A stretch of 64,000 bases of DNA from Laetmonice hystrix (taxonomy: Eukaryota), in assembly GCA_965235115.1 (NCBI GenBank), contig OZ249436.1:16618001-16682000 (forward strand), read 5' to 3'. Positions 11,561-30,844 of this stretch are shown piece by piece. Each line of letters starts with the position of its first letter. Position 1 is the first letter of the stretch. Under the pieces are notes generated by a model. That model searched no databases, was not told the origin of the DNA, and saw only the letters and a program-made list of their open reading frames with translations. The translations under genes and the position numbers were made by a program.

Positions 11561-13195
11561 CAGTGTCAGTAGACCTTCTGATCACTACCAGCCCCCTGAC
11601 AGATCACTACCCCTGCCCGGCTGATCACAACCAGTCTCTGACTTTTCACTAGTACCAGGCCTGACTGAGCACTACCAGCCCCCCTGGCAGATCACTAACC
11701 CCCCCCCCCAACCCCCAACCCCCCCCCCAACCCCCCGCCTGTCCAGCTGATCACTACCAGCCCTCTGACTAATCACTACCAGCTCCCTGACTCCTTGCTA
11801 CAAGCCCCTCCTTTTTTATAAATACCTCTTATAATTTATGTTATGACCCCTCAAAGTTTGTCGACGACACACTCAAAAGGACCCCTGGAGATGGACAGGA
11901 AACCCTAGTAACTAAAAGTACTGACTGGGAATGATCATGCAGGCAAGCGTGTCTTCACAGACATTGGCATTATATAACCTGGAGTTAATGATACGACAAG
12001 TTAACGTCGTAGAACTTAAAGACATGTATGATAAGAAATGATTATGCACCCCTGGCCCTGGTTTTTAGTTTGCAAACCGAGTCTTAAGACTAATCTCTTG
12101 TTTCAGCGCTTCTGATTGGTCTTTCAAATGAAGTCAGCCAATCAGAGACCATAACACAAGTCAGTATTAAAATTCCAGTGTTAAGATTGGTAAAATGACG
12201 AACTAAAATCCGTGTCAGGACTGGGTAGATCTAGAATTTGGAATGGGGGGGGGGGGGGAGAATCTGACTAATGGGCAGAATGAGCAGGTGGGCGCAACCA
12301 CGCCCCCCCCCCCTCTCGGATTTGCCACTTAGAATATACTTGTGATAACAAATGGAATTCATGGGGTTTTTTTGGCTCGATACTAGATCTATACTAGATA
12401 AATCAATCTTCATTGTCATATCTCATGACAGTGATGACTGGTGCAGTGGTGAGAGTACCTACCACAGGACGCCACTGACTCAGTCATCACAGTCAGACAA
12501 TGGCCATCAGCAACATAAAAAATAAAAAATTCAGTTGTAGACCTCTAATCAGTCTAGTCATTGTCATTGTCGTTGACATGATTGTCAAACTCAAAGCCAA
12601 AGGGAATTGTACTTGGCGTAGAGGGCACCACAGAGTCGTCTGATTGCTGTCTACAAAAATAATCGCAGTGACATCGTAAGAGTACTCAGACTGTCTCAGT
12701 ATTTTTGTATTATTGTCACACTCATACTCATAGACATAGTCACATAGTACTGTACCATACCAACGTCGACTACTGTGACTGTAGTGTAGTACTAGTCTAG
12801 AGTCTAGTGTAGCCTGTACCATACTATAGTCGTGTAGAGAGGTCTAACCTACCGTCTAACCTAACGTTAGATCATTAGATGTACCCGGTACTTGTTAGTG
12901 TCTGAGAGTAGTGACAGCAGATACGGTCCGGGCTGGTCGCCCCTGGAAACCAGTACGCCATAGGCCTACCGTATGTACTAATGGACCGGCCCCTGAGAGC
13001 CCGCGGTCCCTGGCCAAACTGGGTGGGACGGCCCCCCCGGCTCCACGTCCCGAGGCTGTACCATGGTCGGCCCCCGTCAACACCAGACACCGCCAACAAC
13101 ACAGCCTACACCGTCCCCACTCGACCACCCCCCACCACACATCACCATCACGATCACTCAGTCACTCACAGCATTGTCAAGTAAATGAGCCATAC

Positions 13196-13647
13196 CTCCT
13201 TCTCCCAGGCCTTGTCCTTCTAATATTGTAGTTGATACAGTTCTCTTAGTTTGTTAAATGTAAATTCCAGCAGGTTGTGTGGCTCTTCGTAACGTTTCAA
13301 TACCACATATGACAGGGGTTTCCTGGAGAAAATCTAAACCCATCCCTCCATCAAAACAAAATGGCACCAAACTCACGACGCATGCGTCAATCACGATGAT
13401 GTCATAATTGGCATTTTTAATGAAAATAGAGACTCTTAACAACTATTTTCCGACAGGAGTGATCATAGGGCTTCGATACAGACTTCTTCTTCGTCAGAAT
13501 CAGGCTCAAAAGACAGATAGCGTTGAATTACGCGCCTACATTAAACGATACAAAACTGTCACTCGACTGTCTTTGGCTGCTGCAGTCACCGGATAGGTTC
13601 TCCTGTCGTGGAGGTAAAATGTCCACCGGATGTGGCCACGAACAAGG
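13196..13647. promoter_or_regulatory. Probable original bidirectional promoter and first non-coding exons of TMEM184-like (-) and INTS1 (+)
   Basis: CpG-containing unique DNA between divergent genes. It has a minus-strand donor GAG|GTATGG at 13195, a plus-strand donor GAG|GTAAAA at 13614 and an ETS-like CCGGATGT near 13626. Confidence 0.45.
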
Positions 13648-14102
13648 ATGAAGGGAGGTAGATGTTCTTTGGCAACAAGCGAGGTCAGGCAACGACTGGA
13701 GTCTGGTGTCAATCACCCACGAGGCTCCGCCCACCAAGGCGGAGTTCTATAAATAGTCCTGGGGATTTCCCCGTTGTTGGCTCTGCACACTGACAGGGCC
13801 GGGCCGTGTGTGTCCTGGCCGGGTGCCCATGCAGCCCCCATGCAGCCGCGGTATCCACCCATACACCTGTCGGGGGAGGTTTTTAAACAAAAAATTATTC
13901 TAATAGGGCCTACTATGAATGAAGTGGCGGTGTGGCTGTAGGAAGAAGCCACCCATGGATGCGATGGTATTCATGCTCAGACGGCAAGTTGAGAATTTGG
14001 TGAAGAAAACATGAAAATTCTATTTAAGTCTGTGTTCGAGTGAAAGTTAAACTTGTGCACATGTATTTTAAAATGAAATTTTGTCACCATCATACAACAC
14101 AA

Positions 14103-14365
14103 CAGGGGCGGATCCAGGATTTAGGAAAAGAGGGGCCGGTTGAAATTAAAGGGGGGCCGAGCTGTAGGGTGTCCGGGGGCATGCGGGACAATTTTGGCAT
14201 CTAGAGTATCTGAAATGGCATTTCCTGAAATTTCCTGCATTCTGAGAAAGCAAAATGTTTGCTTTTACAGTTGCAAACAACAAAATTTTGTTTTTTTTTC
14301 TGATTGGTACCCTGACGAAAGGGGGGGGGCGGCCCCCTCGCCCCCCCCCCCTAAATCCGCCCCTG
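14103..14365. mobile_element. Short MITE of the CAGGGGCGGATCC family
   Basis: Termini CAGGGGCGGAT.../...ATCCGCCCCTG with internal poly-G/C. TSD not clearly resolved. Confidence 0.7.
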
Positions 14366-14844
14366 ACACAGTTCGAAGTGACACTGCTGGGACTGTTTTA
14401 GAACCAACTTACTATCGTTAATGGGTTTACAAAGCGCATTATAGGGCTTTGTAAAGGGCTCGCTTGTTGCCTACACTGTTCTTAGGCGGGAAGACGTTGT
14501 TTTGACAGTTTTACACTTCTTTTATTGAAAAATAAAAAATAAAACAAATTTCCAGGTCGGGGGAATTTCAGAGGTCGGGCGGGGACGCTAAATAAGTAAC
14601 TTTTTTATTTGCCCTAACTACAGTCAGTTAGGCAAAGTATTGATTTAAATATAATACTGGACTAGGCCTACTGTAGTTGTTGGGTTACCTACAGACTCAG
14701 GGGCAGATCCAGAGGGGTCGTGGGGGGGGGGGGGGCACCGGACTTAGGCGAGTGCCGGGTAGGCCTACCTATAATTTCCTGGGGGTTCTCAGTTTGGCCG
14801 GGGGGGGGGGGAGGGAAGTACTTCCCTTCGGACTGTATATTATA

Positions 14845-16290
14845 GTTGTTAGGTTGGCATAAGTCACCAGACTGCAGTCGTTGCCTGATCTCGCTTGTTG
14901 CCAAAGAACATCTACCTGACTGTAGTTGTTACGTTGACGTCAGTCACCAGACTGCAGCCGTTGCCTGACCTCGCTTGTTGCCAAAGATCTACCTGACTGT
15001 AGTGGTTAGGTTGACGTAAGTCACCAGACTGCAGTCGTTGCCTGACCTCACTTGTTGCCAAAGAACATCTACCTGACTGTAGTTGTTACGTTGACGTCAG
15101 TCACCAGACTGCAGCCGTTGCCTGACCTCGCTTTTTGCCAAAGAACATCTACCTGACTGTAGTGGTTAGGTTGGCATAAGTCACCAGACTGCAGTCGTTG
15201 CCTGACCTCGCTTGTTGCCAAAGAACATCTACCTGACTGTAGTGGTTAGGTTGGCAAAAGTCACCAGACTGCAGCCGTTGCCTGACCTCGCTTGTTGCCA
15301 AAGAACATCTACCTGACTGTAGTTGTTAGTTTGACGTCAGTCACCAGACTGCAGCCGTTGCCTGACCTCGCTTGTTGCCAAAGAACATCTACCTGACTGT
15401 AGTGGTTAGGTTGGCATAAGTCACCAGACTGCAGCCGTTGCCTGACCTCGCTTGTTGCCAAAGAACATCTACCTGACTGTAGTTGTTACGTTGACGTCAG
15501 TCACCAGACTGCAGTCGTTGCCTGACCTCGCTTGTTGCCAAAGAACATCTACCTGACTGTAGTGGTTAGGTTGGCATAAGTCACCAGACTGCAGTCGTTG
15601 CCTGACCTCGCTTGTTGCCAAAGAACATCTACCTGACTGTAGTGGTTAGGTTGGCATAAGTCACCAGACTGCAGCCGTTGCCTGACCTCGCTTGTTGCCA
15701 AAGAACATCTACCTGACTGTAGTTGTTAGTTTGACGTCAGTCACCAGACTGCAGCCGTTGCCTGACCTCGCTTGTTGCCAAAGAACATCTACCTGACTGT
15801 AGTTGTTAGTTTGACGTCAGTCACCAGACTGCAGCCGTTGCCTGACCTCGCTTGTTGCCAAAGAACATCTACCTGACTGTAGTGGTTAGGTTGGCATAAG
15901 TCACCAGACTGCAGCCGTTGCCTGACCTCGCTTGTTGCCAAAGAACATCTACCTGACTGTAGTTGTTACGTTGACGTCAGTCACCAGACTGCAGTCGTTG
16001 CCTGACCTCGCTTGTTGCCAAAAAACATCTACCTGACTGTAGTTGTTAGGTTGGCATAAGTCACCAGACTGCAGTCGTTGCCTGACCTCGCTTGTTGCCA
16101 AAGAACATCTACCTGACTGTAGTGGTTAGGTTGGCATAAGTCACCAGACTGCAGCCGTTGCCTGACCTCGCTTGTTGCCAAAGAACATCTACCTGACTGT
16201 AGTTGTTACGTTGACGTCAGTCACCAGACTGCAGTCGTTGCCTGACCTCGCTTGTTGCCAAAGAACATCTACCTGACTGTAGTTGTTAGG
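14845..16290 (-). repeat. Left 80-bp TIR-derived tandem array, 18 units
   Basis: The unit end ...TCTACC recurs at 14916, 14993 (3-bp deletion) and then every 80 bp from 15073 to 16273. 52 bp of the unit match TIR positions 1-52. Confidence 0.95.
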
Positions 16291-17624
16291 TTGACATGAG
16301 TCCAGTTAAAATCAATACTTTGCGTAACTGACTGAAAAGTTGTTGGGTTACCCACCGTACTCCCCTCCTGACTGTAGTTGTTATAGGCTGACGTAAGTTA
16401 TGTTATTATTTATACTTTGGCTAACTGACTGTACCTGTTAAGTTACCTACAATACTCTCCTCCTGAATGTATATCGCTTTTAGGTCGACCTATCAGTCCA
16501 CTTAAAATTAACTCTTTTAATGCCATTTCGTAGCTAGGCCTATAGCCCGAAGAAGGTTAACGTAGACTACATTAAAAGTATAGGCCTATAATGTGCAGGA
16601 GACGGGCCAAAAGCATCCATCTTACAGTTACAAACGACTTAGGCCTATGATATTTGTAGTAACTTTAGAACATTTTTTTCTAGCTGGGGCGGACTGATGT
16701 TATATAGACTGATCTAAAAACTTTAAAGTAGGCCTACGTATGCCAAGGAGAAAGGGAATTCAAAACGTATAGATAGGCTGTAAATTGCATGAAAATGTAC
16801 CAAATAATATTTAGTTTTAGTCTATAACTAGGCCCTACCAATGACTATTAGCCTAAAATGTATAATTTTCTGGTGAGAACCAGCCGGCTGGCTCATTTCG
16901 GGAATGACAATTCTAGGTCAGACAGAGGCTGCCAACTGCAACCTGACCCACCACGATATCGGACGGCGTCACCGTCATGGTCAATTTGATGCCTTCAGGA
17001 ACTCATAAAGAAGAGATGCCGACAAATTCTCACTCTCTAGAGAGCTGTCCCTTGTACAACTGCAGCACACAACGTTGTTGAGTTCACCAGTTTTACACGT
17101 GTTGACAGAAGTGCAATACGTCCATGCTGTTTGTTGGGTCATAAAAAAAATATATAGGCTAGCCTATATTGCTCAAATCAATGGAAAAAAATAGTGAAAA
17201 CCCACCCCGATCATTATATATTTTTTATGACATGTCATAATATGTATAGGCCTACGGTGACCATGCCAAGCGTTTGACAGGCATGATTTTAGCAAATATC
17301 TTAAAAATATAGAATATAATTATGATGGAGGAGATCTCTGATAATGACAGGACCATCAAGAAGTGTGAATGCCGAGTGCATGGGTCAGTCACGAGAGTCG
17401 GGAAGAGGGTGCAAGCTTGTAGGCCCGATACTGTAGCAGAATATGGTCACTGCTGAGCTATGCTAGGTCAGTCGGTCGCCTCCCCACCAGCCTCCCTCCA
17501 TCCCTGCGTTATGATTCGTTCTGGTCAATTAGACGCCGATACACAGACGTGCCTGCATGTTACAACCGTTTGCGCGGGAACGCGCGTCTCCACCTAACGG
17601 TCAGAAGGAGATCGAGGCCAGTAA

Positions 17625-18700
17625 GGGGCAGACCATTTAATAGCGGGGGGGGGGGGGGAGGGTATGGTTTTTCCTTCTGACCAAACTTTTTTTTTTGCTT
17701 CCAACAAAAAACAAACAATTTTTTTTTATCCCTAATCAAAAGCAAACAATTTTTTTCCCGAGGTGGCAGAGACAAACTTTTTTTTTCCAGGACATAATTC
17801 TGCAGCAACCATTGTGTTATCCCGTAAATTTCTGTTCCACAGACATAGGCGCCGGAAGATATTCACAGGTGGGCGGGGGGCACCAAATCATAGGTCCCAA
17901 GTTCCAAGTTTTGAAATGCTGGTGATAAGAACGTCGAAGGCGCGAAGTAGGCGCGAAGTCTCGAGCGGGGGGTCTGGGGGCCCTCCCCCGAAAAAAAAAT
18001 TGAAAATTAAAGTGCCAAATACACGTTTTCCTGGCATCTGGGAACAAAATCTAGGCCCTCTGTCGACGGTCTGACCATCTCCTGCCACCTTGGAGCTGGG
18101 GGGAGGGGAACTATATGCTTGCCCCCCAGCTTTTGAGCTGGGAGTGGGGGTGGGGGTGGGGGGGCAACAGGCCGGTTCCTACATAATTATAACATCTCTA
18201 CCACAGCCTTAGGAATATATGATTGTACTGTATTCAGCTTTGAACCATGCAGTACTTTTATAATAGACTATGAAACGAATTGGAAGTTCTAATTGTCTTC
18301 ACAGATTTGTGGGCTTTCAAATATCTTGTAGTGCAAGCGAATGTCTACATAAAACAATTGATCAAGTTATACATACTAGTATTCAATTGCATGTCATAAT
18401 TGTTCAGACTGATATGTTTTACTCAGTATTGTATAGAGTATGCCTAAATAAAACTGGTGACCGAGCGGAGCGAGGAAAATTTTTGGTCTTCTTTTAATTT
18501 TTTAGCAGTTTCGGGCAGATTTTTTTTTATAAATCTGCTTCCTGTCAACAATCTATTTTTTTTCACACACATTGCTAAACAAACTATTTTTTTCACACAC
18601 ATTTGAGAGCAAACTATTTTTTGGGGTAAACTTGGCAAACAAACTTTTTTTTTACGAAAAAACCATACCCCCCCCCCCCAGCTATTAAATGGTCTGCCCC
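17625..18700. mobile_element. PIF/Harbinger-like non-autonomous element, containing a further short insertion at about 17845-18180
   Basis: TIR GGGGCAGACCATTTAATAGC...GGTATGGTTTT mirrored at 18659-18700; TSD TAA at 17622-17624 and 18701-18703. Confidence 0.8.
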
Positions 18701-19347
18701 TAAATGGTTGTTACAGTATAGGCCTAGATCTACATGGTTGGGAGCCATTCTAATCAATTGGATCCAACATATTGATACGACTGTTCTTGTCCGCTCCCTG
18801 ACGAGCTGTATCATAACATAAATATAGAGTTTATAGTAGGCCTATTCAGGGGGCTATTGAGGGGACTCGACGAACAGATCCAAGGTTGTCCCTGGTTAAG
18901 TAGGATAATTGTTAGGCAACACTGAAAATATTGGGGGGGGGGGGGGCTTTAGCCCCGTAGCCCCCTCCCCTTGAATTACGGCCCTGATATAGTATCTATC
19001 ATGCATACATGTGTGCTATCGGGGGGGGGGGGAGACTCCCCTCTCAGCTGTGAAATATGCATTGTGCAGTCTGGGCTCAAAAATTTTTTTTCACTGAAAG
19101 GGGGTGTGCGCCCCCGATCGACCTATCCCCTCCATCCCCTCTTCGATAATTCCTTTAGGCCTAGTGTGTCAAATTGTAAATACGCCAGACACGTTTCAAA
19201 CTCTGCAAAATTGTGGAATTTCTAATAATTATTCTTTAAATTACAGGTAAATGTAATTACAATTTACATGGGATGAGACATGTATACATCGACCAAAGAT
19301 GTATCATACATTGACATACATACATTTGGACATTGGGACATACATAC

Positions 19348-19607
19348 CAGTGGCGGATCCAGGATTTCAGAACAGGATGGGGGGCAAATTTTGTTAGATA
19401 ATCAGTGGCCCATTTGGGTCTGTGGGCCCTTCCCCTAGAATTTATTTTTCAGGAACGTCGGAAACATGTTTTCTGAACATGTAGAGTAGAAATTTCTTCC
19501 AAATTCTTTAACGAAATTCCATTATTTTTAAGCATGAAACATAGAAAATAGACAAGATTTTGGAAAAAGGGGGGCCGGGCTGGGTGCCCCCCCTGGATCC
19601 GCCACTG
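19348..19607. mobile_element. Short MITE (CAGTGGCGGATCCAGG TIR)
   Basis: 16-bp TIR CAGTGGCGGATCCAGG/CCTGGATCCGCCACTG. Confidence 0.75.
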
Positions 19608-20125
19608 CATATACTGTCCTCTTTGGGTGCAGACGTTTGAACGTTACGAATGGACCTGTTTGGTCCAGGCGTACGGTTCGCACCAAGGCTGCATGGATTG
19701 AAACTTTATCTATACATGTTTGCCCTCTCGCTGCAGCCTTCGGAAAATATTACGGATATTATGTTTTTTTTATTCAGAATCGCGGAATTTTTTATTTTTG
19801 TATTTGTATTTTGTATTTTTTTACGGATATTCCGTTGGCAGTTTACGGAAACAATATTACGGAACTCGTTATTTTTACGGAAAATATCCGGTTCCTTTGT
19901 TGCCAGACATTTTCCGTAAATTTAACGGAATTTTCCTAACAGTGTACGATGCACCTATAAGCTTAGCAGTTGACCAGCTATCCGATATTCTGGACTGTAT
20001 TGCTAAGAGTAGGAAACCTCAGGTAGAAGTCTACTCCTCGCCGTAGTGTTTTGCACCTGTCAAATTGTTGCAACATGCACCTCCTTGAAAAGAATCCTGG
20101 ATCCGGCCCTGCTACGCCAGACATT

Positions 20126-20326
20126 CCGGTGGCGGATCCAGCAGGGGGATGGGGGGGGGGGGGCTTAAGGCCCCCCCCCCTATAGCTGACTCCAGGGTTA
20201 TCAGTTTGCATTATGTCTACGGCACACCTAAGAGGTTTGATATAGGCCTACATATACATCAAGCGCCCGGCCCCATCGCAAAATCCTGGATGTATCCCCC
20301 CTTCCAAAATCCTGGATCCGCCCCTG
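20126..20326. mobile_element. Short MITE of the GGCGGATCCAG family, adjacent to another truncated end near 20095-20111
   Basis: CCGGTGGCGGATCCAG...CTGGATCCGCCCCTG termini. Confidence 0.6.
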
Positions 20327-20559
20327 CATTCTTGCATCAGTGGTTTTATCTGTTGCCTGCGTCAGCAGTCACTTTCATGGCCGACTGTTATGTGATCGGT
20401 AGTTAGGTGTGTCTGGGTAATTGGGCGCGATTCACGCCGATTTCGAAGGCCCTTGCGGCTAATTATGGATGTGTGTACTTTATGTAGACGTCATAAGTTA
20501 TTTGTTATTTTTGTCGATTTTTCCAAGGCATGGACCGAGTACCAAGAACCCTACTGTGT

Positions 20560-21240
20560 TGCCGCTAGCATCCTTCGATCATGTGTCTCACAGTTATATT
20601 AGGGGATGCGGCTGATAGACAAACGATAGTAGTGGGGGACAACGAGGAGCTGGCTATTCAATATTGTGAGATGTATACATATTTAGGCAGTATTTTCACA
20701 TGTGATGGGAGAGTAAGTACTTATAGGGAGCATGCTAGGAGTGTCAAGAAGCATCTTATGAAGTTGGTTTCATTTCATAGACGAAACGCGGATATATGTC
20801 TTTTATAGAAGAAGGTAATGGACGCAGCGTTCTTGTCAGCTATTTTGTATGGCTGTGAGAGCTGGTTAAATGTTTCTCATACAGAGATGGACAAGATTTA
20901 CCACTCAGCACTAAAGGCATTAAGTAATATGTGTAAGAACCACGACTGTGAATGATTTGTGCCTGGCAGAGTTAGGGTATCCGCCCCTTAGATACTTCGT
21001 GTTACAGAAACAGAGGCTCTACTTTGAGAAGATGATTAATTCAAGAAGTGGTTTAGATGATGACCCTCTAATGATCGCTATAGATCTAGCACGTAGGGAG
21101 GGTATCTAAAATGGGGGAGGAAATTGTTAGAGGTATAGTATACCGAGTCTGGCGACTATATGACTACAGGGATCAAGTAAGTCAAAGTACGCTACATATA
21201 GAATAACTAACCCTACTCTTGAGGTGTATATATTTGCGTT
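20560..21240 (+). pseudogene. Degenerate non-LTR retrotransposon (LINE) ORF2 fragment, RT C-terminal region
   Basis: Broken translation YTYLGSIFTCDG...AAFLSAILYGCESW...ELGYPPL contains the typical post-RT thumb motifs (YxYLG, LxYGxExW), with stops and frameshifts. Confidence 0.7.
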
Positions 21241-21827
21241 GTGGTGACACATTAAAACCCGGAACATTTGAGAATGCAGTTATTGATAGTTTACTTTTGA
21301 AGAAATATTTTACCGATGTGAATGAGGTAATAAAAATACCCTTAACACTATAAATTTCTCTTGTGTTGGATTCATATGTATCAATTAATATTCACCATAT
21401 ATATAGAAGTACATTATGTTGTTCACGTTTTGATACGAAATTATAGGTTAATATATATCATTTTCCTTCAATTGAGTATTGTCTCTGCAGCCAGAAAGCA
21501 TGGCTCTGCATTGACACTCCCATTTGGACATTTGGACGCCATTTCGTGGTGAAAACTTAGACAAAATTTATCACTGCTAAGGGAAAATTTTAAAATAACG
21601 GTCATGATACAAACATAACAGACGTATGAATAAATGGCATATTGGTATTGATAAGGAATTTTACGCAGGCTACAGCTTGATGTGGCCGTAATTAAAGTAA
21701 ATAAATTATAGGCCCCTGCATAATTAGGCCTATCATACATCATACATCTAGGCAGGTTTAAAGGATGGTATGTTCATGTATATGTTAACCTAACAACCAC
21801 GCTCAGGAAGACAGTATACCCCCCCCC

Positions 21828-23511
21828 CCTACAGGTAACACGCAGTATTCCAGCAATATTACTGGATGGTTGCACGAGTATTGCACTTTGGGTAACATTG
21901 CTGCAACACTATTAGAAGATAGTTAAAGGTAAAAGATTTCAGCAATATTGAGTCAATGTTAGATGCCAGCATAAAGTATACAGTCCTGTTTTACACAGTT
22001 TGAATGTATGTTGATACAGTATTGTAGCAATATGCAGGCGCGTGTCCAGGATTTTCAACAGGGGGGGGGGGTCTCAGAAAAAAAAATTAGGAGCTCTGAG
22101 ACGCGATTCCCCGCCATTTAGGGCTCATTTTAGGGCATATTTTATGGATTCATCGCTCAAGGGGTTCAAAACGGCGGGAATGCTTAGAAAAAATCGCTCA
22201 ATGGGCTCAAAACGGCGGGAATGCTTAGAAAAAATCTATGCTGTGTGAAAGCAGGGGACCCCTGGACCCCCCCCCCCCCGGACACGCGCCTGAGAGTTCA
22301 ACAGAAATTTAATGTATGTTGCCACAGTATATTGCGGCAATATGAGAGTTCAACAGAAATTTAATGTACGTTGCCACAGTATTGCAGCAATATGAGAGTT
22401 CAACAGAAATTTAATGTATGTTGCTGCAGTATTGCAGCAATATTACAATTCAACATTTAGGCCTACATGTAATGTACGTTGCTGCAGTATTACAACAATA
22501 TTACAGTTCAACAGTATTTATATGAAGGCCTATTGCTGTAGTATTGTAGCAATATTATGCTACGGTATTCTGAATGTATGTTGCTGCAGTATTGCAGCAA
22601 TATGAGCAATGATGTAATGATTGGTGTATTTCTCGTGGAACACACATGGATATCTACACGTGGAAATGATCGGTGTATTTTCTCGTGAAATACACGTGGA
22701 TATCTGGGTCCCATGGAAAGAAAAAGTCATATTAAAATATGTAAATGTCTATGATAACATTTTCCCAAAGAAAAACTGGCTAGCTCTGTACGACGATTGA
22801 CTTTGAGAAAGAACCGTTGTGAGAAGCTGAAAGTTTAACAGTACTGGCAACTGGATCAATCGTAGCCAACTTGTCAGCTCTGTGTGTATACAGAGCTGAT
22901 GCTAGGGTGACCCAAAAATCTAGTGAATTTGTTATATTACAATTTCAGAAGCAAAAATTATATCACGAAGTTAGGAGCTTTGCGGTGGTGTAAATCTTTA
23001 AGGCGGTGGTGTAAATCTAGATGAATCTAGATGGTTTTCCGGACGATTTCTTTTTCTAGCGAAATACCCCTTATTACATATGTGGATATGTCCGCAGAAT
23101 GTCACCTGGAGAAATGGAAAACTGGGTGATATGACATGGAAAATGACACTTGTAATGCACATGGATTACTCTGGATATCCACGTGTATTCCACGGGAAAT
23201 CCACGAGTTGTGCCTGCTGGGTATTAGGCCTATAATATTAAGATGATATTGTTTAAATATTGTTCCAGTATAATATCACAATATTATGAAAACACAACTT
23301 GCGAATGTTGCTGCCATGGTACAACATTGGTGCAACAAAATGATCATGCTGCAATAATATTAAAATAATATTGATGGAAAGTTGTGCCAATGTAGGCTAA
23401 TCATAATATTACTGAAAACATTACTGCAACATTCCTGAGTCTTCACCAACATTGCTGCAACGAAATGATCATGTTGCTGCAATGTTACTTGAACATTGCT
23501 TTGTTAGCTGG
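21828..23511. mobile_element. Degenerate CCCAG-terminated (CMC/EnSpm-like) element or elements with (A/G)TTGC-GCAA(T/C) subterminal repeats
   Basis: Right ends ...TGTTAGCTGGG (23511) and ...GCCTGCTGGG (23221); many GCAATATT/ATTGCAGCAAT repeats; the left end is decayed. Confidence 0.4.
22035..22292. mobile_element. Short MITE (CAGGCGCGTGTCC TIR)
   Basis: TIR CAGGCGCGTGTCC/GGACACGCGCCTG, interrupting a local repeat unit GCAATATG|AGAGTTC. Confidence 0.7.
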
Positions 23512-24174
23512 GCCAGCAACTGAAACCAAAAGGTTAACTGAACAACAGTTATAGGAGGGGAGTATTGTGGGTAACCCAAGAACTACAGTCAGTTCGGCAT
23601 AATATTGATTTTAACTGGATTCATGTCAACCAAACAACTACAGTCAGCAGGGGAGTAGGCCTACGGTTGGTAACCCACCAACTATACAGTCAGAAGAGAC
23701 AACTACAGCCAGGAGAGGAGTACTGTAGGTACCGGTGTTTTTTGGCAACACGTAAGGTCAGGCAACGAAAGCAGTCTGGTGACTGACGTCAAACTAACAA
23801 CTACAGTCAGGAGGGGAGTACGGTTGGTATCCCAACAACTAGTCTAAAGTCAGTTAGGCAAAGTATTGATTTTACCTGGACTCATGTCAACCTAACAACT
23901 ACGGTCAGGAGGGAAGTACCTGGCGGATCCAAGGGGGGGGGGGCATGGGGGCACGTGCCCCCTCCCGGCAATATTTCCCAGGAAATTAGGTAGGCCTGTA
24001 TCCGGCGCTCGCCCAGGCCGGGTCCCGCCCCCCCCCCCCCCGGCAACACCCGGTGCGCCCCCCCCCCCCCACGGGAACGACACCTCTGGATCCACCCCTG
24101 ATTAGGCCTACGGTTGGTGACACAACAACTACAGTCAGTTCGCCAAAGTATTGATTTTAACTGGACTCATGTCA

Positions 24175-27100
24175 ACCTAACAACTACAGTCAGGTAGATG
24201 TTTTTTTGGCAACAAGCGAGGTCAGGCAACGACTGCAGTCTGGTGACTGACGTCAAACTAACAACTACAGTCAGGTAGATGTTTTTTGGCAACAAGCGAG
24301 GTCAGGCAACGACTGCAGCCCGGTGACTGACGTCAACGTAACAACTACAGTCAGGTCGATGTTCTTTGGCAACAAGTGAGGTCAGGCAACGACTGCAGCC
24401 TGGTGACTGACGTCAAACAAACAACTACAGTCAGGTAGATGTTCTTTGGCAACAAGTGAGGTCAGGCAACGACTGCAGTCTGGTGACTTATGTCAACGTA
24501 ACAACTACAGTCAGGTAGATGTTCTTTGGCAACAAGCGAGGTCAGGCAACGGCTGCAGTCTGGTGACTGACGTCAAACTAACAACTACAGTCAGGTAGAT
24601 GTTCTTTGGCAACAAGTGAGGTCAGGCAACGACTGCAGTCTGGTGACTGACGTCAACGTAACAACTACAGTCAGGTGGATGTTCTTTGGCAACAAGCGAG
24701 GTCAGGCAACGGCTGCAGTCTGGTGACTGACGTCAAACTAACAACTACAGTCAGGTAGATGTTCTTTGGCAACAAGCGAGGTCAGGCAACGACTGCAGTC
24801 TGGTGACTTATGTCAACGTAACAACTAAAGTCAGGTAGATGTTCTTTGGCAACAAGCGAGGTCAGGCAACGACTGCAGTCTGGTGACTGGCGTCAAACTA
24901 ACAACTGCAGTCAGGTAGATGTTCTTTGGCAACAAGTGAGGTCAGGCAACGACTGCAGTCTGGTGACTGACGTCAACGTAACAACTACAGTCAGGTAGAT
25001 GTTCTTTGGCAACAAGCGAGGTCAGGCAACGACTGCAGTCTGGTGACTGACGTCAAACTAACAACTACAGTCAGGTAGATGTTCTTTGGCAACAAGCGAG
25101 GTCAGGCAACGACTGCAGTCTGGTGACTGACGTCTACCTAACAACTACAGTCAGGTAGATGTTCTTTGGCAACAAGTGAGGTCAGGCAACGACTGCAGTC
25201 TGGTGACTGACGTCAACGTAACAACTACAGTCAGGTAGATGTTCTTTGGCAACAAGCGAGGTCAGGCAACGACCAGGGATGAAAGTTTTCAGGAAATTTC
25301 CTGAAATCAGGAAATTTGAAAAAATCCCCCCCCCCCCCCAAGAAATAACACCCAAAAAAGAAAATAGGCCTAGATCTATAGGCAAAAGAGGTAGGCCTAA
25401 GCCAAGGCTAAGTATTGCCCTGGACTGTGTGGTGGGCAATTAATATCAAATGAAACAATATCCCCTTCCAGGACGTTTTTTAACACCATGCAGCTCAATA
25501 TATCTCTACCTGCCAAAGTTCGTTTATAGATGGGGATATTAGAGTGTCTCAAACCCGTTCAGTGTCACGGGTGCCACCGTGCATAGGCCGGTCTGCCGGG
25601 GGTGCTGGTCCCTGTAGCTGTGGTGACATCGCTCACATAGACCGGCCCGCGTGGGCTGACTTCTACCGGCACGCGGTGGCGTCTGTCCCGTCTGGCAGGC
25701 ACGGCCCCGTGTCGCTGTGGTGAGAGCGACTCACCTCAGGTAATGACTTCAGGCAAAATTGATGGTCAGGCAGCTGCGAAGCCCGTTGATTCAGGCTTGC
25801 CATTATGCCATATCCATGCGCGAGTTTTGCCTGAGCGCTCACTTAGTGAACGAGACTATAGTATAGACAGACCGGTCTGTCTAGTCCCGGCGTTGGTGAT
25901 AGTGATTAGGCTGACGAACTATGCACCATCACAATGTCACTCCTCACAGGAAACTGGGTCAATTTAGTTCTATGAATCTGCCTAGTATATATGTCAGTAA
26001 GTTCTCATAATGTGTTCTTGCATATAAATTTGAGGATAGTGGCATTACGTAAGTGGTTTTCACTGAAGTTTTGGGGTTGTCAGGACTTTTCATTACATTT
26101 GTCGATCAGTGCAGGTGTCCTGATAAGACCGGAAGTGACAATTTTCACAACAACATGAGTGGCACATGGACACACGGGCTGAACCACTCGACTCAGCGAA
26201 GCCTGTGTTGCTTGGCTGAGAGCCGCTGAGGGTCGTGACTGCTGAGGGTCAAGACTGATGGACAGCCTGTGTGGTCAGTCTAACACATGGAAGCTGTTTG
26301 ACAACGTAATCGGTTGCATTTTGGACGCTAAAAGCCGACTGGATTCCAATGTTGGAGAGAGACGGCAGAGCCAGGCAGAGGTTGACATGCACTGACTGTG
26401 ACTGAGTGACAGGCAAGCAACAGCCTTGAACAGGGGCATGGACTGATGAGTGATGGAGTCTATCCAGCAAATTTGCAGGGGTGGGGGGTTGAGGGGGGGG
26501 GGGGTGGCGACTAAATACTGAGGACTAGGCCCTATAATATATAATAGCTAGGAGGCCTTATCGGATCATGATTGTCTGCTGTTCCTAGCCTGACTTTTTT
26601 TAAGGGGGGGGGGGGGGGTAAGCCTTGGATGTGCGCATGAACAAATATTAATTATGGACATTGGCCCCCCCCGCTCCCCCCCCCCCCCCCGGTCAGAATT
26701 TCAGGAAATTTTACAGCTGGCCACTTTCATCCCTGAACGACTGCAGTCTGGTGACTGACGTCAAACTAACAACTACAGTCAGGTAGATGTTCTTTGGCAA
26801 CAAGTGAGGTCAGGCAACGGCTGCAGTCTGGTGACTGACGTCAAACTAACAACTACAGTCAGGTAGATGTTTTTTGGCAACAAGCGAGGTCAGGCAACGA
26901 CTGCAGCCCGGTGACTGACGTCAACGTAACAACTACAGTCAGGTCGATGTTCTTTGGCAACAAGTGAGGTCAGGCAACGACTGCAGCCTGGTGACTGACG
27001 TCAAACAAACAACTACAGTCAGGTAGATGTTCTTTGGCAACAAGTGAGGTCAGGCAACGACTGCAGTCTGGTGACTTATGTCAACGTAACAACTACAGTC

Positions 27101-28820
27101 AGGTAGATGTTCTTTGGCAACAAGCGAGGTCAGGCAACGGCTGCAGTCTGGTGACTGACGTCAAACTAACAACTACAGTCAGGTAGATGTTCTTTGGCAA
27201 CAAGTGAGGTCAGGCAACGACTGCAGTCTGGTGACTGACGTCAACGTAACAACTACAGTCAGGTGGATGTTCTTTGGCAACAAGCGAGGTCAGGCAACGG
27301 CTGCAGTCTGGTGACTGACGTCAAACTAACAACTACAGTCAGGTAGATGTTCTTTGGCAACAAGTGAGGTCAGGCAACGGCTGCAGTCTGGTGACTGACG
27401 TCAAACTAACAACTGCAGTCAGGTAGATGTTCTTTGGCAACAAGTGAGGTCAGGCAACGACTGCAGTCTGGTGACTGACGTCAACGTAACAACTACAGTC
27501 AGGTAGATGTTCTTTGGCAACAAGCGAGGTCAGGCAACGACTGCAGTCTGGTGACTGACGTCAAACTAACAACTACAGTCAGGTAGATGTTCTTTGGCAA
27601 CAAGCGAGGTCAGGCAACGACTGCAGCCCGGTGACTGACGTCAACGTAACAACTACAGTCAGGTCGATGTTCTTTGGCAACAAGTGAGGTCAGGCAACGA
27701 CTGCAGCCTGGTGACTGACGTCAAACAAACAACTACAGTCAGGTAGATGTTCTTTGGCAACAAGTGAGGTCAGGCAACGACTGCAGTCTGGTGACTTATG
27801 TCAACGTAACAACTACAGTCAGGTAGATGTTCTTTGGCAACAAGCGAGGTCAGGCAACGGCTGCAGTCTGGTGACTGATGTCAAACTAACAACTACAGTC
27901 AGGTAGATGTTCTTTGGCAACAAGTGAGGTCAGGCAACGACTGCAGTCTGGTGACTGACGTCAACGTAACAACTACAGTCAGGTGGATGTTCTTTGGCAA
28001 CAAGCGAGGTCAGGCAACGGCTGCAGTCTGGTGACTGACGTCAAACTAACAACTACAGTCAGGTAGATGTTCTTTGGCAACAAGTGAGGTCAGGCAACGG
28101 CTGCAGTCTGGTGACTGACGTCAAACTAACAACTACAGTCAGGTGGATGTTCTTTGGCAACAAGCGAGGTCAGGCAACGAATGCAGTCTGGTGACTGACG
28201 TTAAACTAACAACTACAGTCAGGTAGATGTTCTTTGGCAACAAGTGAGGTCAGGCAACGACTGCAGTCTGGTGACTGACGTCAACGTAACAACTACAGTC
28301 AGGTGGATGTTCTTTGGCAACAAGCGAGGTCAGGCAACGGCTGCAGTCTGGTGACTGACGTCAAACTAACAACTACAGTCAGGTAGATGTTCTTTGGCAA
28401 CAAGCAAGGTCAGGCAACGACTGCAGTCTGGTGACTGACGTCAAACTAACAACTACAGTCAGGTGGATGTTCTTTGGCAACAAGCGAGGTCAGGCAACGG
28501 CTGCAGTCTGGTGACTGACGTCAACGTAACAACTACAGTCAGGTAGATGTTCTTTGGCAACAAGTGAGGTCAGGCAACGACTGCAGTCTGGTGACTTATG
28601 TCAACGTAACAACTACAGTCAGGTAGATGTTCTTTGGCAACAAGCGAGGTCAGGCAACGGCTGCAGTCTGGTGACTGACGTCAAACTAACAACTACAGTC
28701 AGGTAGATGTTCTTTGGCAACAAGTGAGGTCAGGCAACGACTGCAGTCTGGCGACTTATGTCAACGTAACAACTACAGTCAGGTAGATGTTCTTTGGCAA
28801 CAAGCGAGGTCAGGCAACAA
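24175..28820 (+). repeat. Right 80-bp TIR-derived tandem array, about 40 units (14 + 26), interrupted by a hAT-like insertion
   Basis: GGTAGATG (or a variant) at 24193, then every 80 bp from 24274 to 25234 and from 26782 to 28782. Reverse complement of the left array. Degenerate units also near 23735, 28960 and 29160. Confidence 0.95.
25274..26735. mobile_element. Non-autonomous hAT-like element with 6-bp TSD (hAT6-like), nested in the right array
   Basis: 13-bp TIR CAGGGATGAAAGT/ACTTTCATCCCTG, TSD AACGAC on both sides and subterminal TCAGGAAATTT motifs. Removing it restores the 80-bp register exactly. Confidence 0.85.
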
Positions 28821-30389
28821 CTACAGTCAGGAGGGGAGTAAACCTGGCGGATCCAAGGGGGGAGCATTGGGGTCACGTGCCCACCCAGGCAAAACTGAGA
28901 CACCCCTTATTATTTCCTAGGAAATTAGGTATAGGCAAAGTAGTGATTTTAACTGGCGTGTTTTTTTGGCAACAAGTGAGGTCAGGCAACGACTGCAGTG
29001 ACTTATGTCAACCCATAGTACAGTTCTATGGTCAACCTAACAACTACAGTCAGGAGGGGAGTAGGGTTGGTAACACAACAACTGTATAGGCTATAATGCA
29101 GTCAGTTAGGCAACGTATTGATTTTAACTGGACTGATGTCAACCTAACAACTACGGTCAGGTAGATGGTTTTTTGGCCACAAGCGAGGTCAGGCAACGAC
29201 TGAAGTCTGGTGACTTACGTCAACCTAACAACTAGATCTACAGTCAGAAGCCGAGAAGGGGAGTGCAAAAGGTGAAGCCGGGGGTTCGGGTTGCTCGAAC
29301 CCCCCTCCCCCACCCAAAATTAATATAGATTGGCCTAATTATGGTTGGGACCGCCCCCGATCTCAGTTGGACCCCCCCATATAGGCCTACCCCAATCTCA
29401 GTTCTGCCTACATCCCTGGGAGTACGGGGTAATCTAATAAGTACGGTAGTTAGGCGAAGTATTGATTTTAAATGGACTGATGTCAACCTAACAACTACAG
29501 TCAGGAAGGGAGTATTGTAGGTAGGGGGCCTAACCTTACACTACCTACGGTAAGCTGCCGAGATATCTCGGTTGGAGGGAAGGAATCGCTTGGCGCAAGT
29601 AGATCTAAATGAGTAGGCCTATCACTGGGGAATCGGGGGGGGGGGGTCACATGGGGTCCGGCCCCTCCCTCTCCCTAAAATTTCGTGGCGCCTACGGCTG
29701 CTGATCATGCATGGCACCCGACGTCATTGTGTCTTTTGACATTGCCATTGGTCATTGAATAGCTTATTTTGTGCTCCAAAATGCATTAGATTTCACCAAA
29801 TGACACTTTGATTTTCAAAATTGTATTTTAGTGGGGCTTCGAAGTAGATCTACCCGCCCCCACCCCCTGGGACCAAACTCACACTCACTCTTGATCAGAT
29901 TAGGGCCTACCTTATGGAACAAACTATCTGTCCACATCAGAAAGTTAAGTGAGAAAAATGAATTTAAATCCGAAATTAAAAAATTTTAGGCCTAGATCTA
30001 TAGCCTACCAATCTCCTATAGGCCTGCATGTGTTTCTCTCTGATAATAATCGCTAAATGTGAAATGGATTAGATCTATGGTGGCTTACTTTGTTACAAGT
30101 TTGATTTTTAGATCTATATTTACTCTGTATGTAACGTAGGCCTAATTGTATTGTGAATATGAATTTGGATTCATTCTAAATGTAGGCCCTAATTATGTTT
30201 GTTGATTTCTAGGACCCAGGACCCGTAATCCTGGTTAAATATGGTCAATAAAAATTTAAGAAAAACTGCCTAACACACTGTAGCCTATACTCTTTTTTTA
30301 CCAGATTACTGGCAGATAATGAGTCAGTTAGGCCTAGGCTTAGCCGCGTGTTAAACAGCATAGATACGCCTAGATCTATGCCTATAATC

Positions 30390-30565
30390 AGGGGTGTAGC
30401 CAGGATTTTTTGAGGGGGGGGGGGGGTGCTTAGATCCGTGACAAGCGGAAACCGCGCACATGTGCCCGTCTTCATCATTCAAAATTCAATCTTTACTACT
30501 GGTGTAAGCCTGGGTGGGGGGGGGCGAGGACCCCCGAGCCCCCCCCCCCCCCTGGCTACACCCCT
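30390..30565. mobile_element. Short MITE (AGGGGTGTAGCCAGG TIR)
   Basis: 15-bp TIR AGGGGTGTAGCCAGG/CCTGGCTACACCCCT. Confidence 0.7.
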
Positions 30566-30844
30566 ATGCAGGCTATGCCTATGGTAAAATGCTGATGGAT
30601 GAAGATAACATGCCCCCAACACGTGGTGAATGCGGTATGAGGGAATTCCCAGTGACGTCATTATATGGTTTACTGGTCTTCTAATGTGAAGAGTTCCATT
30701 TGGGCGGAGCCTCGTGGGTGATTGGCACCAGACTCCAGTCGTTGCCTGACCTCGCTTGTTGCCAAAGAACATCTACCATGAAGGGAGCCTTTATTAGATG
30801 TGGCTGATAATTATTGTCTTTAAAGTTAGGAAACACTCCATACA

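Follow-up and report, generated by a model that had tools for sequence, protein, structure and literature searches.

Foldback-type transposable elements are common, but to our knowledge very few tests have been made of what their repetitive arms do (in Muta1 and Galileo). The TSD of Galileo is 7 bp, and P/Galileo elements are characterised by TSDs of 7-8 bp. Bacterial Tn5 and Tn10, with their outside and inside ends, and the double-Ds and reversed-ends Ac/Ds configurations of maize combine outward-facing real ends with inner ends of opposite polarity. Tetris, a foldback element of Drosophila virilis, carries tandem repeats that share 37 bp (~80%) with its terminal domain, has TSDs of 8-9(-10) bp and is described as having no ORF (PMC4079207). 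The MULE-related foldback Rehavkus is reported to have a 9-bp TSD and, in Tribolium, up to 50 subterminal monomers (10.1101/2024.12.02.626372; PMC6446971). In Muta1, an Aedes aegypti MULE classed as a "type 2 foldback", subterminal repeats are reported to strengthen transposase binding, to be required for cleavage and to raise the frequency of excision (PMC5499845). Galileo, of the P superfamily, is described as holding secondary transposase (THAP) binding sites within tandem repeats (PMC3688188).

We analysed 64,000 nucleotides of contig OZ249436.1 (positions 16,618,001-16,682,000) from the Laetmonice hystrix assembly GCA_965235115.1 (627 Mb), hereafter the window. It contains an element of 17,121 bp at window positions 13657-30777, with TSD and TIRs read directly from the sequence (Table 1). 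The near-perfect 77-bp TIRs, the perfect 9-bp TSD and the length given by the original prediction were all recovered (76/77 TIR bases match, and ATGAAGGGA is found on both sides), as were its two mirror-image 80-bp arrays of 18 and about 40 units carrying TIR bases 1-52 in reverse. Altogether ~58 units face backwards relative to the nearer end: In a BLAST search with the TIR, the left side gave 18 units in reverse and the right side 14 + 26 in forward orientation, mostly corresponding to TIR bases 1-52; three isolated or partial units were also recovered, and TRF delimited the same arrays. An isolated forward unit lies inside the centre at 23736-23787, and degenerate forward units occur in the right arm at ~28965 and ~29172. 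The two parts of the right array constitute a single array, because a nested 1,462-bp element with its own 6-bp TSD splits it. Nested repeats also support the description of the interior as cluttered; the left arm spacer includes a high-copy repeat (~13997-14600, word depth up to ~65,000), and the repeat at 17622-18703 shows 93-96% identity to at least 38 loci among the matches listed, with 4,758 first-look candidates in the genome. The left subterminal domain contains a GC-box-like CCGCCC and the TATA-like TATAAATAG (13748-13756), a stretch that might act as a promoter. An Rfam scan of the window gave no matches. The window is also rich in unrelated minisatellites (86 TRF rows).

Table 1. Features of the window copy (positions are those of the window).
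Feature	Position	Strand	Remarks
Left TSD copy, 9 bp, ATGAAGGGA	13648-13656		Same letters as at 30778-30786
Left TIR, 77 bp, tip GGTAGATG	13657-13733	+	76/77 match to right TIR (98.7%)
Left-end-specific subterminal domain, reaching ~125 bp from tip	13734-13781	+	Conserved at 10/10 left-type ends across both subfamilies; differs from right-type ends
Left arm spacer, asymmetric relative to right arm	13782-14842		Inverted matches are unit-like pieces only
Left array, 18 80-bp units, each composed of reverse-complemented TIR 1-52 and a 28-bp spacer	14843-16302	-	TRF 18.3 copies, 93% matches; 18 reversed TIR matches (BLAST)
Non-coding centre ("7-kb loop" of the original prediction)	16303-24163		Common to the C8 copy, 88-94% identity
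Nested 1.08-kb high-copy repeat, foreign to the family	17622-18703		Missing from the C8 copy
Right array part a, 14 forward units	24164-25273	+	TRF 13.9 copies
Nested TIR element, 1,462 bp, ends CAGGGATGAAAGT...	25274-26735		6-bp TSD AACGAC at 25268-25273 and 26736-26741, read at the junctions
Right array part b, 26 forward units	26736-28828	+	TRF 26.2 copies
Right arm, with right-end-specific subterminal domain (last ~130 bp)	28829-30700		BLAST and end comparison
Right TIR, 77 bp	30701-30777	-	Reverse complement of left tip ends at 30777
Right TSD copy, 9 bp, ATGAAGGGA	30778-30786		Read directly

The prediction could be checked against further TIR-paired copies, and these exist: the assembly holds ten copies of 4.5-31.7 kb, eight of them with perfect 9-bp TSDs that all differ from one another, and two with no TSD. 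The layout TIR> ... <units ... units> ... <TIR recurs in all ten, and since these are spread over eight contigs an assembly artefact is unlikely. Every copy has TIRs of 76-77 bp set within asymmetrical conserved end domains of ~125-130 bp, left and right domains being unlike beyond base 77 and each conserved family-wide. The ends of the other nine copies share 96-99% identity with the left TIR of the window copy. The 16-base tip, where not preceded by A, matches ten sites in the genome, all of them ends of family copies (backwards control, 0 forward and 1 reverse). Tip-pattern searches found neither an unpaired TIR in the genome nor the tip elsewhere, and one further locus alone is related, a left-end relic of 116 bp. 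Searching for the unit junction gave 383 occurrences genome-wide, compared with 0 for the control, and 383/383 lie inside the ten copies; in this genome the 80-bp minisatellite is wholly transposon-borne. Because tip and unit-junction counts exceed those of the backwards controls, the backward-facing arrangement is not due to chance. With tips and junctions confined to the ten copies, the genome contains neither sub-elements nor free arrays, and no resident autonomous partner sharing the tip; the suggested release of sub-elements is not supported.

Two subfamilies, A and B, were distinguished. Between them only the arrays, the 125-130-bp ends and a few 250-350-bp stretches resembling nested repeats are common, and their consensus units differ at 4/80 positions. 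Subfamily B comprises eight copies with arms mostly 96-100% identical (92-94% in the right arm of C13). Copies of one subfamily have a conserved centre. A flip by recombination between the mirror arrays was sought among subfamily-B copies: the centre was collinear in 7/7 comparisons and inverted in none, so the predicted rearrangement of central cargo was not borne out. Array length changes fast. Units per side range from 1-2 isolated units up to 50 across copies; three copies with left arms 99.8-100% identical carry 15/16/17 and 14/14/16 units, and another pair, with left arms 99.8% identical, carries 10 vs 26 and 22 vs 49. In two copies a real array is confined to one side, the other holding two isolated units in C8 and one partial unit in C10. 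Both nonetheless have a perfect TSD, and arrays are therefore not needed on both sides at once.

Single units of the window copy are 90-98% complementary to its left TIR, and its mirror arrays are 93-94% complementary to each other over 1,319 nt; in a single-strand fold the terminus pairs with the first unit over ~51 bp. Identity of the units to TIR bases 1-52 is 96% in the window copy and ~90% in subfamily B (to its own TIR). Units contain no TIR bases 53-77, and array borders fall within the spacer and not at a tip. The minor-base fraction across 308 full 80-bp units is 0.020 in unit bases 1-52, 0.045 in the 28-bp spacer and 0.007 in the 8-base tip, and bases 1-52 are less variable than the spacer in 10/10 copies (Mann-Whitney p = 0.02). 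This contrast is modest. It is drawn from 308 full-length BLAST matches selected from 485, and concerted evolution could contribute to it.

No Pfam domain was detected in the 47 ORFs of at least 65 aa across the whole window element. A DNA-transposase domain was likewise absent from every copy (47 + 96 + 17 + 107 ORFs scanned), and credible domain matches in the copies derive solely from nested LTR retroelements. The transposase-bearing copy that the original prediction proposed to look for was thus not found among the ten, and because no copy has one the transposase must act in trans. The proposal that the element inserted as one unit with transposase supplied in trans is supported by the TSDs and by the lack of a transposase in any copy; the family is real, its copies entered their sites as single units, and it encodes no transposase itself. 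An autonomous partner under the same tip is absent from the assembly, where tip-pattern searches matched only the family. The genome has 40 matches to MULE genes, and the two loci of these 40 examined as candidate partners show no similarity to the family TIR: the PHD-bearing L065 has unrelated TIRs, and the other shows none within the 10 kb examined. A resident Merlin partner was sought at 18 loci with PF12762 matches, none of which resembles the 77-bp TIR beyond 10-11-mers (BLAST).

Several features place the family close to the foldback class (FB, Tetris, Galileo, Rehavkus and Muta1). Mirror-image tandem subterminal repeats are present on both arms (two copies having only 1-2 isolated units on one side), repeat number varies among copies, and the units are related to the terminal sequence, but in reversed orientation. 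The arms are not inverted repeats over their whole length, only the 76-77-bp TIRs and the arrays being symmetrical. The TSD in 8/10 copies agrees with the 9 bp (9-11 bp) of MULE/Rehavkus elements, and a TSD of 8-9 bp with a TIR starting GG agrees with Merlin, a feature not exclusive to that superfamily. No relation was found between the TIR and an IS1595-type transposase-bearing element. All 8/8 TSD-bearing copies have 9 bp, outside the P/Galileo range, and no solo short elements occur that would mark the flanking modules of a composite transposon as moving independently. The 9-bp TSD and GG tip would fit either MULE/Rehavkus-Foldback or Merlin.

Tetris, as far as its description extends, resembles this family in being non-autonomous and without an ORF, with few structurally complete copies and no autonomous partner found. 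In both, each arm runs from a terminal domain through a tandem array of variable length to an inner part, and a portion of the array unit is also found in the terminal domain. Unit length is 80 bp here versus ~220 bp in Tetris. The unit here contains all of the terminal 52 bp, tip included, with 90-96% identity and reversed relative to the nearer end; the description of Tetris leaves the orientation of the shared stretch unstated. The Tetris TIR-220 is reported to form kb-size arrays, while here no free satellite arrays exist outside elements. Rehavkus repeats, by the published account, similarly evolve in concert with the element; the defining feature of Rehavkus, a MULE-like transposase carrying a PHD finger, is however absent from these copies, and the likeness concerns TSD and monomer number. 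Muta1 shares the 8-9-bp TSD and GG tip (Muta1 tip, GGGTCTACCC), but it is autonomous and its repeats are described as 12-bp motifs in a 145-bp TIR, compared with the 80-bp reversed-terminus units here (PMC5499845). Galileo shares long, internally repetitive arms as described (PMC3688188), but no THAP or P-type gene is present in this family, and the TSD is 9 bp here. The resident Merlins (IS1595-like) also have a GG tip (Merlin end GGGTAGAG vs GGTAGATG in the family) and differ in their 8-bp TSD, read in the flanks of two intact copies, and in TIRs without BLAST similarity beyond 10-11-mers. Tn5/Tn10 and the double-Ds and reversed-ends Ac/Ds configurations have the same geometry of ends as this family; they differ in that neither flanking module here is an element in its own right, and no products of inside-end use were found. 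Reversed whole-end arrays with a complete tip do not appear in the published foldback descriptions examined, in the parts available, which is not proof of their absence. The statement that no described family has this layout was nevertheless too strong, as Tetris, Rehavkus, Galileo and Muta1 are described as carrying variable tandem arrays, those of Tetris arising from its terminal domain. Foldback arms with variable tandem arrays are known; what is unusual here is the reversed orientation and the complete tip, and this is not a new kind of element.

Taken together, these results favour a model in which a small non-autonomous, foldback-type cut-and-paste family resembling Tetris, Rehavkus and Muta1 carries arrays that probably provide extra transposase-binding sites. 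The 80-bp units may bind a transposase supplied in trans, in the way demonstrated by experiment for Muta1 and Galileo subterminal repeats. They would be bound but not cut, since TIR bases 53-77 are missing from them and unit tips do not form the end of any junction or sub-element in the genome. Changes in array length would come about through unequal exchange or slippage. Several observations sit less easily with this model: the one-sided C8 and C10, the ~90% unit-TIR identity in subfamily B, arms that are not full inverted repeats, the 2/10 copies without a TSD, and the Muta1 subterminal repeats, described as short motifs and not as reversed whole ends.

The one-sided arrays of C8 and C10 are fitted equally well by a hitch-hiking satellite, or by loss after insertion. 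Under the former explanation, which we consider possible but unlikely, the terminal 52 bp together with 28 bp were by chance duplicated in inverted orientation and grew into a minisatellite that now lengthens and shortens through unequal exchange, and the arrays are neutral passengers with no role in transposition. The perfect TSDs of these two copies agree with this, as do the spread of unit numbers per side (1-2 to 50), with two- to three-fold differences between copies whose left arms are 99.8% identical, and the ease with which this genome makes arrays, judged from the 86 TRF rows of unrelated minisatellites in the window. Satellite growth from foldback arms is also documented for Tetris and Rehavkus in the accounts available (PMC4079207; 10.1101/2024.12.02.626372). 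Neutral passengers would not, however, be expected to persist in both subfamilies when practically everything else in the interior has been replaced, nor to be less variable in the TIR-like 52 bases, and above all in the tip, than in the spacer in 10/10 copies; free arrays outside elements are moreover absent (383/383 junctions inside). It is very unlikely that the arrays instead restrain the family, either as the transposase decoy raised in the original prediction or through hairpin RNA from the 1.3-kb mirror arrays feeding small-RNA silencing. The complementarity of these arrays (93-94% over 1,319 nt) and the ~51-bp pairing of terminus and first unit would suit such a role, and the TATA-like and GC-box-like stretch, found in 10/10 left ends, appears to point inwards. 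Precedents are piggyBat, whose activity is described as held down by its own subterminal sequences, and an inverted-repeat Ac allele reported to yield small RNAs. Subfamily B has nevertheless moved recently despite arrays of 8-50 units, because its copies are 97-100% identical and have different TSDs.

The order of outside end, inside ends, centre, inside ends and outside end would also be that of a composite transposon, in which two short elements, mirror images of each other, flank a passenger as IS elements do in Tn5 or Tn10, and their inside ends are multiplied and active, giving inside-out events or releasing the short elements, an idea already raised in the original prediction. The nearly unchanged 8-base tip of the units (minor-base fraction 0.007) is compatible with this, and the 2/10 copies without a TSD are what aberrant events might give. 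We regard it as highly improbable: no solo short element exists, all tips lying in the ten paired copies apart from the one 116-bp left-end relic, and the left and right end domains differ beyond base 77 while each is conserved, so the arms are not two copies of one short element. The conserved centres, collinear in 7/7 comparisons, and array borders that sit in the spacer rather than at tips argue in the same direction. A decidedly doubtful variant treats the units as working reversed ends, making the family the eukaryotic equivalent of a composite transposon whose inside ends have multiplied, in which the real terminus would synapse with a neighbouring unit, throttling transposition as a sponge or abortive-synapse brake or driving hairpin or inside-out events. 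Working reversed ends would explain why whole tips, and not short motifs, are near-invariant in ~480 units across two otherwise dissimilar subfamilies.

The family offers a clean natural experiment, with ten copies in two subfamilies whose retained sequence is limited to the ends and a reversed, tip-complete 80-bp unit, occurring 1-2 to 50 times per side. If a partner transposase were found, one could ask whether the orientation of subterminal sites matters, whether a site with a cleavage tip can be bound without being cut, and whether such arrays promote or slow transposition. As regards annotation, the 80-bp minisatellite is in this genome carried entirely by transposons.

The 400-bp left flank of the window copy is unique in the genome, and a paralogous empty site is therefore lacking. 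The proposed check for an empty allele, made at the left junction with reads, gave a hint, but not proof, that the insertion is heterozygous in the read sample. Three runs of one sample, which may be the assembly's own, were compared as contigs with positions 12657-14656. Flank contigs of all three runs extend exactly to 13657; X1 record 1 and X2 record 9 run on for another 150 letters, which do not match the element, and X3 stops at 13657. Depth over the arm-unique interval 13731-14031 was 28 and 31, compared with 48 and 58 in the flank, and the corresponding bin of X3 gave 4.76 versus 37.3.

The structure described in the original prediction proved accurate: the 17,121-bp element of the window (the window copy) carries terminal inverted repeats (TIRs) identical at 76 of 77 positions, a 9-bp target-site duplication (TSD) and mirror-image arrays. 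Each 80-bp array unit comprises TIR bases 1-52 and a 28-bp spacer, facing opposite to the nearer end. With the TIR as BLAST query, the left side yielded 18 reversed units and the right side 14 + 26 forward ones; TIR bases 1-52 were spanned by most matches, and three isolated or partial units were also present. The right-hand arrays are a single array split by a nested TIR element, and the 6-bp TSD of this insertion points to a superfamily other than that of its host.

Coordinates of features in the window and at related loci. Contigs (C) belong to assembly G000, in which the window occupies C1:16618001-16682000; L numbers denote fetched genome stretches.
Feature	Position	Details
TSD of window copy, ATGAAGGGA	window 13648-13656 and 30778-30786	9 bp
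Window copy	window 13657-30777	starts GGTAGATG..., ends ...CATCTACC
TATAAATAG	window 13748-13756	92-100 bp from left tip, pointing inwards; preceded by GC-box-like CCGCCC
Left-arm repeat	window 13997-14600	word depth up to ~65,000 in public contigs
80-bp array, left	window 14843-16302	18.3 copies, 93% matches (TRF)
1.08-kb repeat nested in centre	window 17622-18703	93-96% identity to at least 38 loci on many contigs
80-bp array, right	window 24164-25273	13.9 copies, 93% matches (TRF)
Nested TIR element	window 25274-26735	1,462 bp; ends CAGGGATGAAAGT...; TSD AACGAC
80-bp array, right	window 26736-28828	26.2 copies, 93% matches (TRF)
C3a copy (L037)	C3:27057960-27064301	TIRs intact
C2 copy (L039)	C2:36108931-36113933	TIRs intact
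Relic (L021, C8:26910346-26913405)	L021 about 1468-1569	116 bp of left end, solo
Retroelement pol frame in C13 copy centre	L042:3276-6953 (-)	uninterrupted, 1,226 aa (RT, RNase H, integrase)
Merlin, open 437-aa frame (L048)	C2:255269-258655	
Merlin, open 437-aa frame (L049)	C3:32687511-32690897	
Merlin, open 437-aa frame (L050)	C18:14150070-14153456	
Merlin, open 437-aa frame (L051)	C7:29465109-29468492	
MULE transposase (L065, C1:33427500-33434500)	L065:2121-4151 (+)	677 aa; PHD and FLYWCH fingers
Weak MULE match (L066, C6:28194500-28204499)	L066:2559-6029 (+)	1,157-aa open frame
Minisatellite after this frame	L066:8497-10000	52 bp, at least 28 units

When the 84-bp left end was searched against the 627-Mb assembly (35 contigs), eight contigs proved to hold ten paired copies, ranging from 4.5 to 31.7 kb, and one relic was recovered as well. 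The layout TIR> ... <units ... centre ... units> ... <TIR was present in all ten, with up to 50 units per side; the two sides are strongly unequal in the C8 copy (2 isolated units against 40) and in the C10 copy (9 units against 1 partial unit). Perfect 9-bp TSDs, all different, flank eight of the ten copies; none was found at the C3a and C2 copies. The C3a arms are 99.8-100% identical to two TSD-bearing copies; the missing TSDs could reflect a flanking deletion, recombination or an aberrant event. The relic has a 15-bp deletion inside its TIR and adjoins unrelated repeats.

Stop-to-stop ORFs from the window copy (47) and from the other copies (96, 17 and 107) were compared with Pfam, and none contained a DNA-transposase domain. 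Together with the TSDs, this supports the proposal that the element moved as one unit and depends on a transposase supplied in trans. Nested LTR retroelements account for the credible Pfam matches (RVT_1, RNase H and rve in the C13 copy; copia-type gag and integrase pieces in the C30 copy), while weak matches to DUF2937 and PAZ_2 lie within tandem-repeat ORFs and look spurious. Rfam gave no matches across the window. The centre of the window copy, 88-94% identical to that of the C8 copy, is old non-coding filler rather than host cargo. Protease and gag-like frames lie upstream of the pol frame in the C13 copy. The TATA-like TATAAATAG and CCGCCC stretch is kept in all ten left-type ends and may be the leftover promoter of a lost transposase gene.

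Family ends and units were then counted genome-wide. A 25-base tip pattern (the outermost TIR bases; up to 2 mismatches, in a context barring array units) occurred at 25 sites and at none in the control. Nineteen of these are ends of the ten copies, and the remaining sites are six relics internal to subfamily-B arms; the 20th family end, on C8, has a small insertion and was missed. The exact 16-base tip without a preceding A occurs ten times, always at family ends, and all 383 spacer-tip junctions of the unit (up to 1 mismatch) lie within the ten copies. The assembly, possibly incomplete, therefore holds no sub-element, free satellite array or autonomous element with the same tip. The suggestions that array units release sub-elements or rearrange the central cargo find no support in this genome, the centre being collinear in 7/7 comparisons.

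The ten copies fall into two subfamilies, with the window copy and C8 forming A and all eight others forming B. Megablast matches between them are confined to the arrays and a few 250-350-bp stretches resembling nested repeats. In an alignment of all 20 ends, ~125 bp are kept at every left-type end and ~130 bp at every right-type end, the first 76-77 bp being common to both. Between the two subfamilies, the consensus unit shows 4 differences over its 80 positions. Among 308 exact-length units (out of 336 near-full-length units and 485 BLAST matches), the minor-base fraction was 0.020 in bases 1-52 compared to 0.045 in the spacer, and 0.007 in the 8-base tip. Bases 1-52 were less variable than the spacer in every copy (10/10, p = 0.02; a modest test). 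Cis-acting sequence would be expected to show this pattern, and concerted evolution may contribute to it. Units of subfamily B match their own TIR at only ~90% identity. Among the B copies, arm identity is mostly 96-100% (C13 right arm, 92-94%), indicating a recent spread of this subfamily; the nearest relative of the window copy is only 88-94% identical. The word depth of the left-arm repeat marks it as very high-copy, and its presence may account for the greater arm length in subfamily A than in B.

We regard the element as probably a non-autonomous foldback-type transposon whose arrays provide additional transposase-binding sites. Subterminal repeats of Muta1 give tighter binding, are needed for cleavage and increase excision (PMC5499845), and Galileo has THAP-binding sites within tandem repeats (PMC3688188). 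Alternatively, the arrays may be a passenger satellite, which we consider unlikely but worth weighing. Three copies with 99.8-100% identical left arms have 15/16/17 and 14/14/16 units, and a near-identical left-arm pair has 10 vs 26 and 22 vs 49. Array borders fall within the spacer, never at the tip, and each array lies inside a family copy.

Self-restraint, with the arrays acting as a sponge (as had been suggested) or through hairpin RNA, appears improbable. In a single-strand DNA fold, the outermost 52 nt of the window copy pair with the first unit, and piggyBat activity is restrained by its own subterminal sequences. That the element is a composite transposon is very doubtful, no short element standing alone in the assembly. 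Within a given copy, units taken from opposite arrays differ no more than units of a single array do.

The layout had been thought undescribed, and this holds only in part. Tetris, a foldback element that is likewise non-autonomous, has 8-9-bp TSDs, no known partner and arm arrays with 37 bp in common with the terminal domain (PMC4079207); in Rehavkus, TSDs of 9 bp accompany long inverted termini and as many as 50 subterminal monomers (bioRxiv 10.1101/2024.12.02.626372; PMC6446971). With Muta1, Galileo and piggyBat, these precedents make the general design already known; the reversed, tip-bearing units remain. The literature search, which covered papers rather than Repbase or Dfam entries, found no described case with tip-complete, backward-facing units and otherwise asymmetrical arms.

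Both the 9-bp TSD and the GG tip are compatible with MULE/Rehavkus-Foldback or Merlin. Among the resident Merlins (18 PF12762 matches, including four with a 437-aa frame), the tips are GGAACTAGTGCAC and GGGTAGAGTGCAC, and TSDs measure 8 bp in both copies whose flanks were read (L048, L050). These Merlins were rejected as partners, showing no BLAST similarity to the family TIR; the 437-aa-frame family may still be active. Two of the 40 MULE matches in the genome were examined. L065 is a type-2 foldback MULE whose TIRs consist of 17-bp tandem subterminal repeats (CCAGTTCGAGCGC...), and its frame was also matched on C4; these TIRs are unrelated to the family TIR, and it too was rejected. The L066 frame contains internal coding repeats of 75-87 bp, and a search of the 10 kb examined revealed no TIRs.

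With 4,758 first-look candidate loci in the genome, the 1.08-kb repeat in the window-copy centre has the appearance of a highly abundant and rather young non-autonomous element. Public contigs hint that the window-copy insertion is heterozygous. Unrelated minisatellites are unusually plentiful in the window (86 TRF rows, units of 20-148 bp), many forming arrays of 0.5-1.5 kb.
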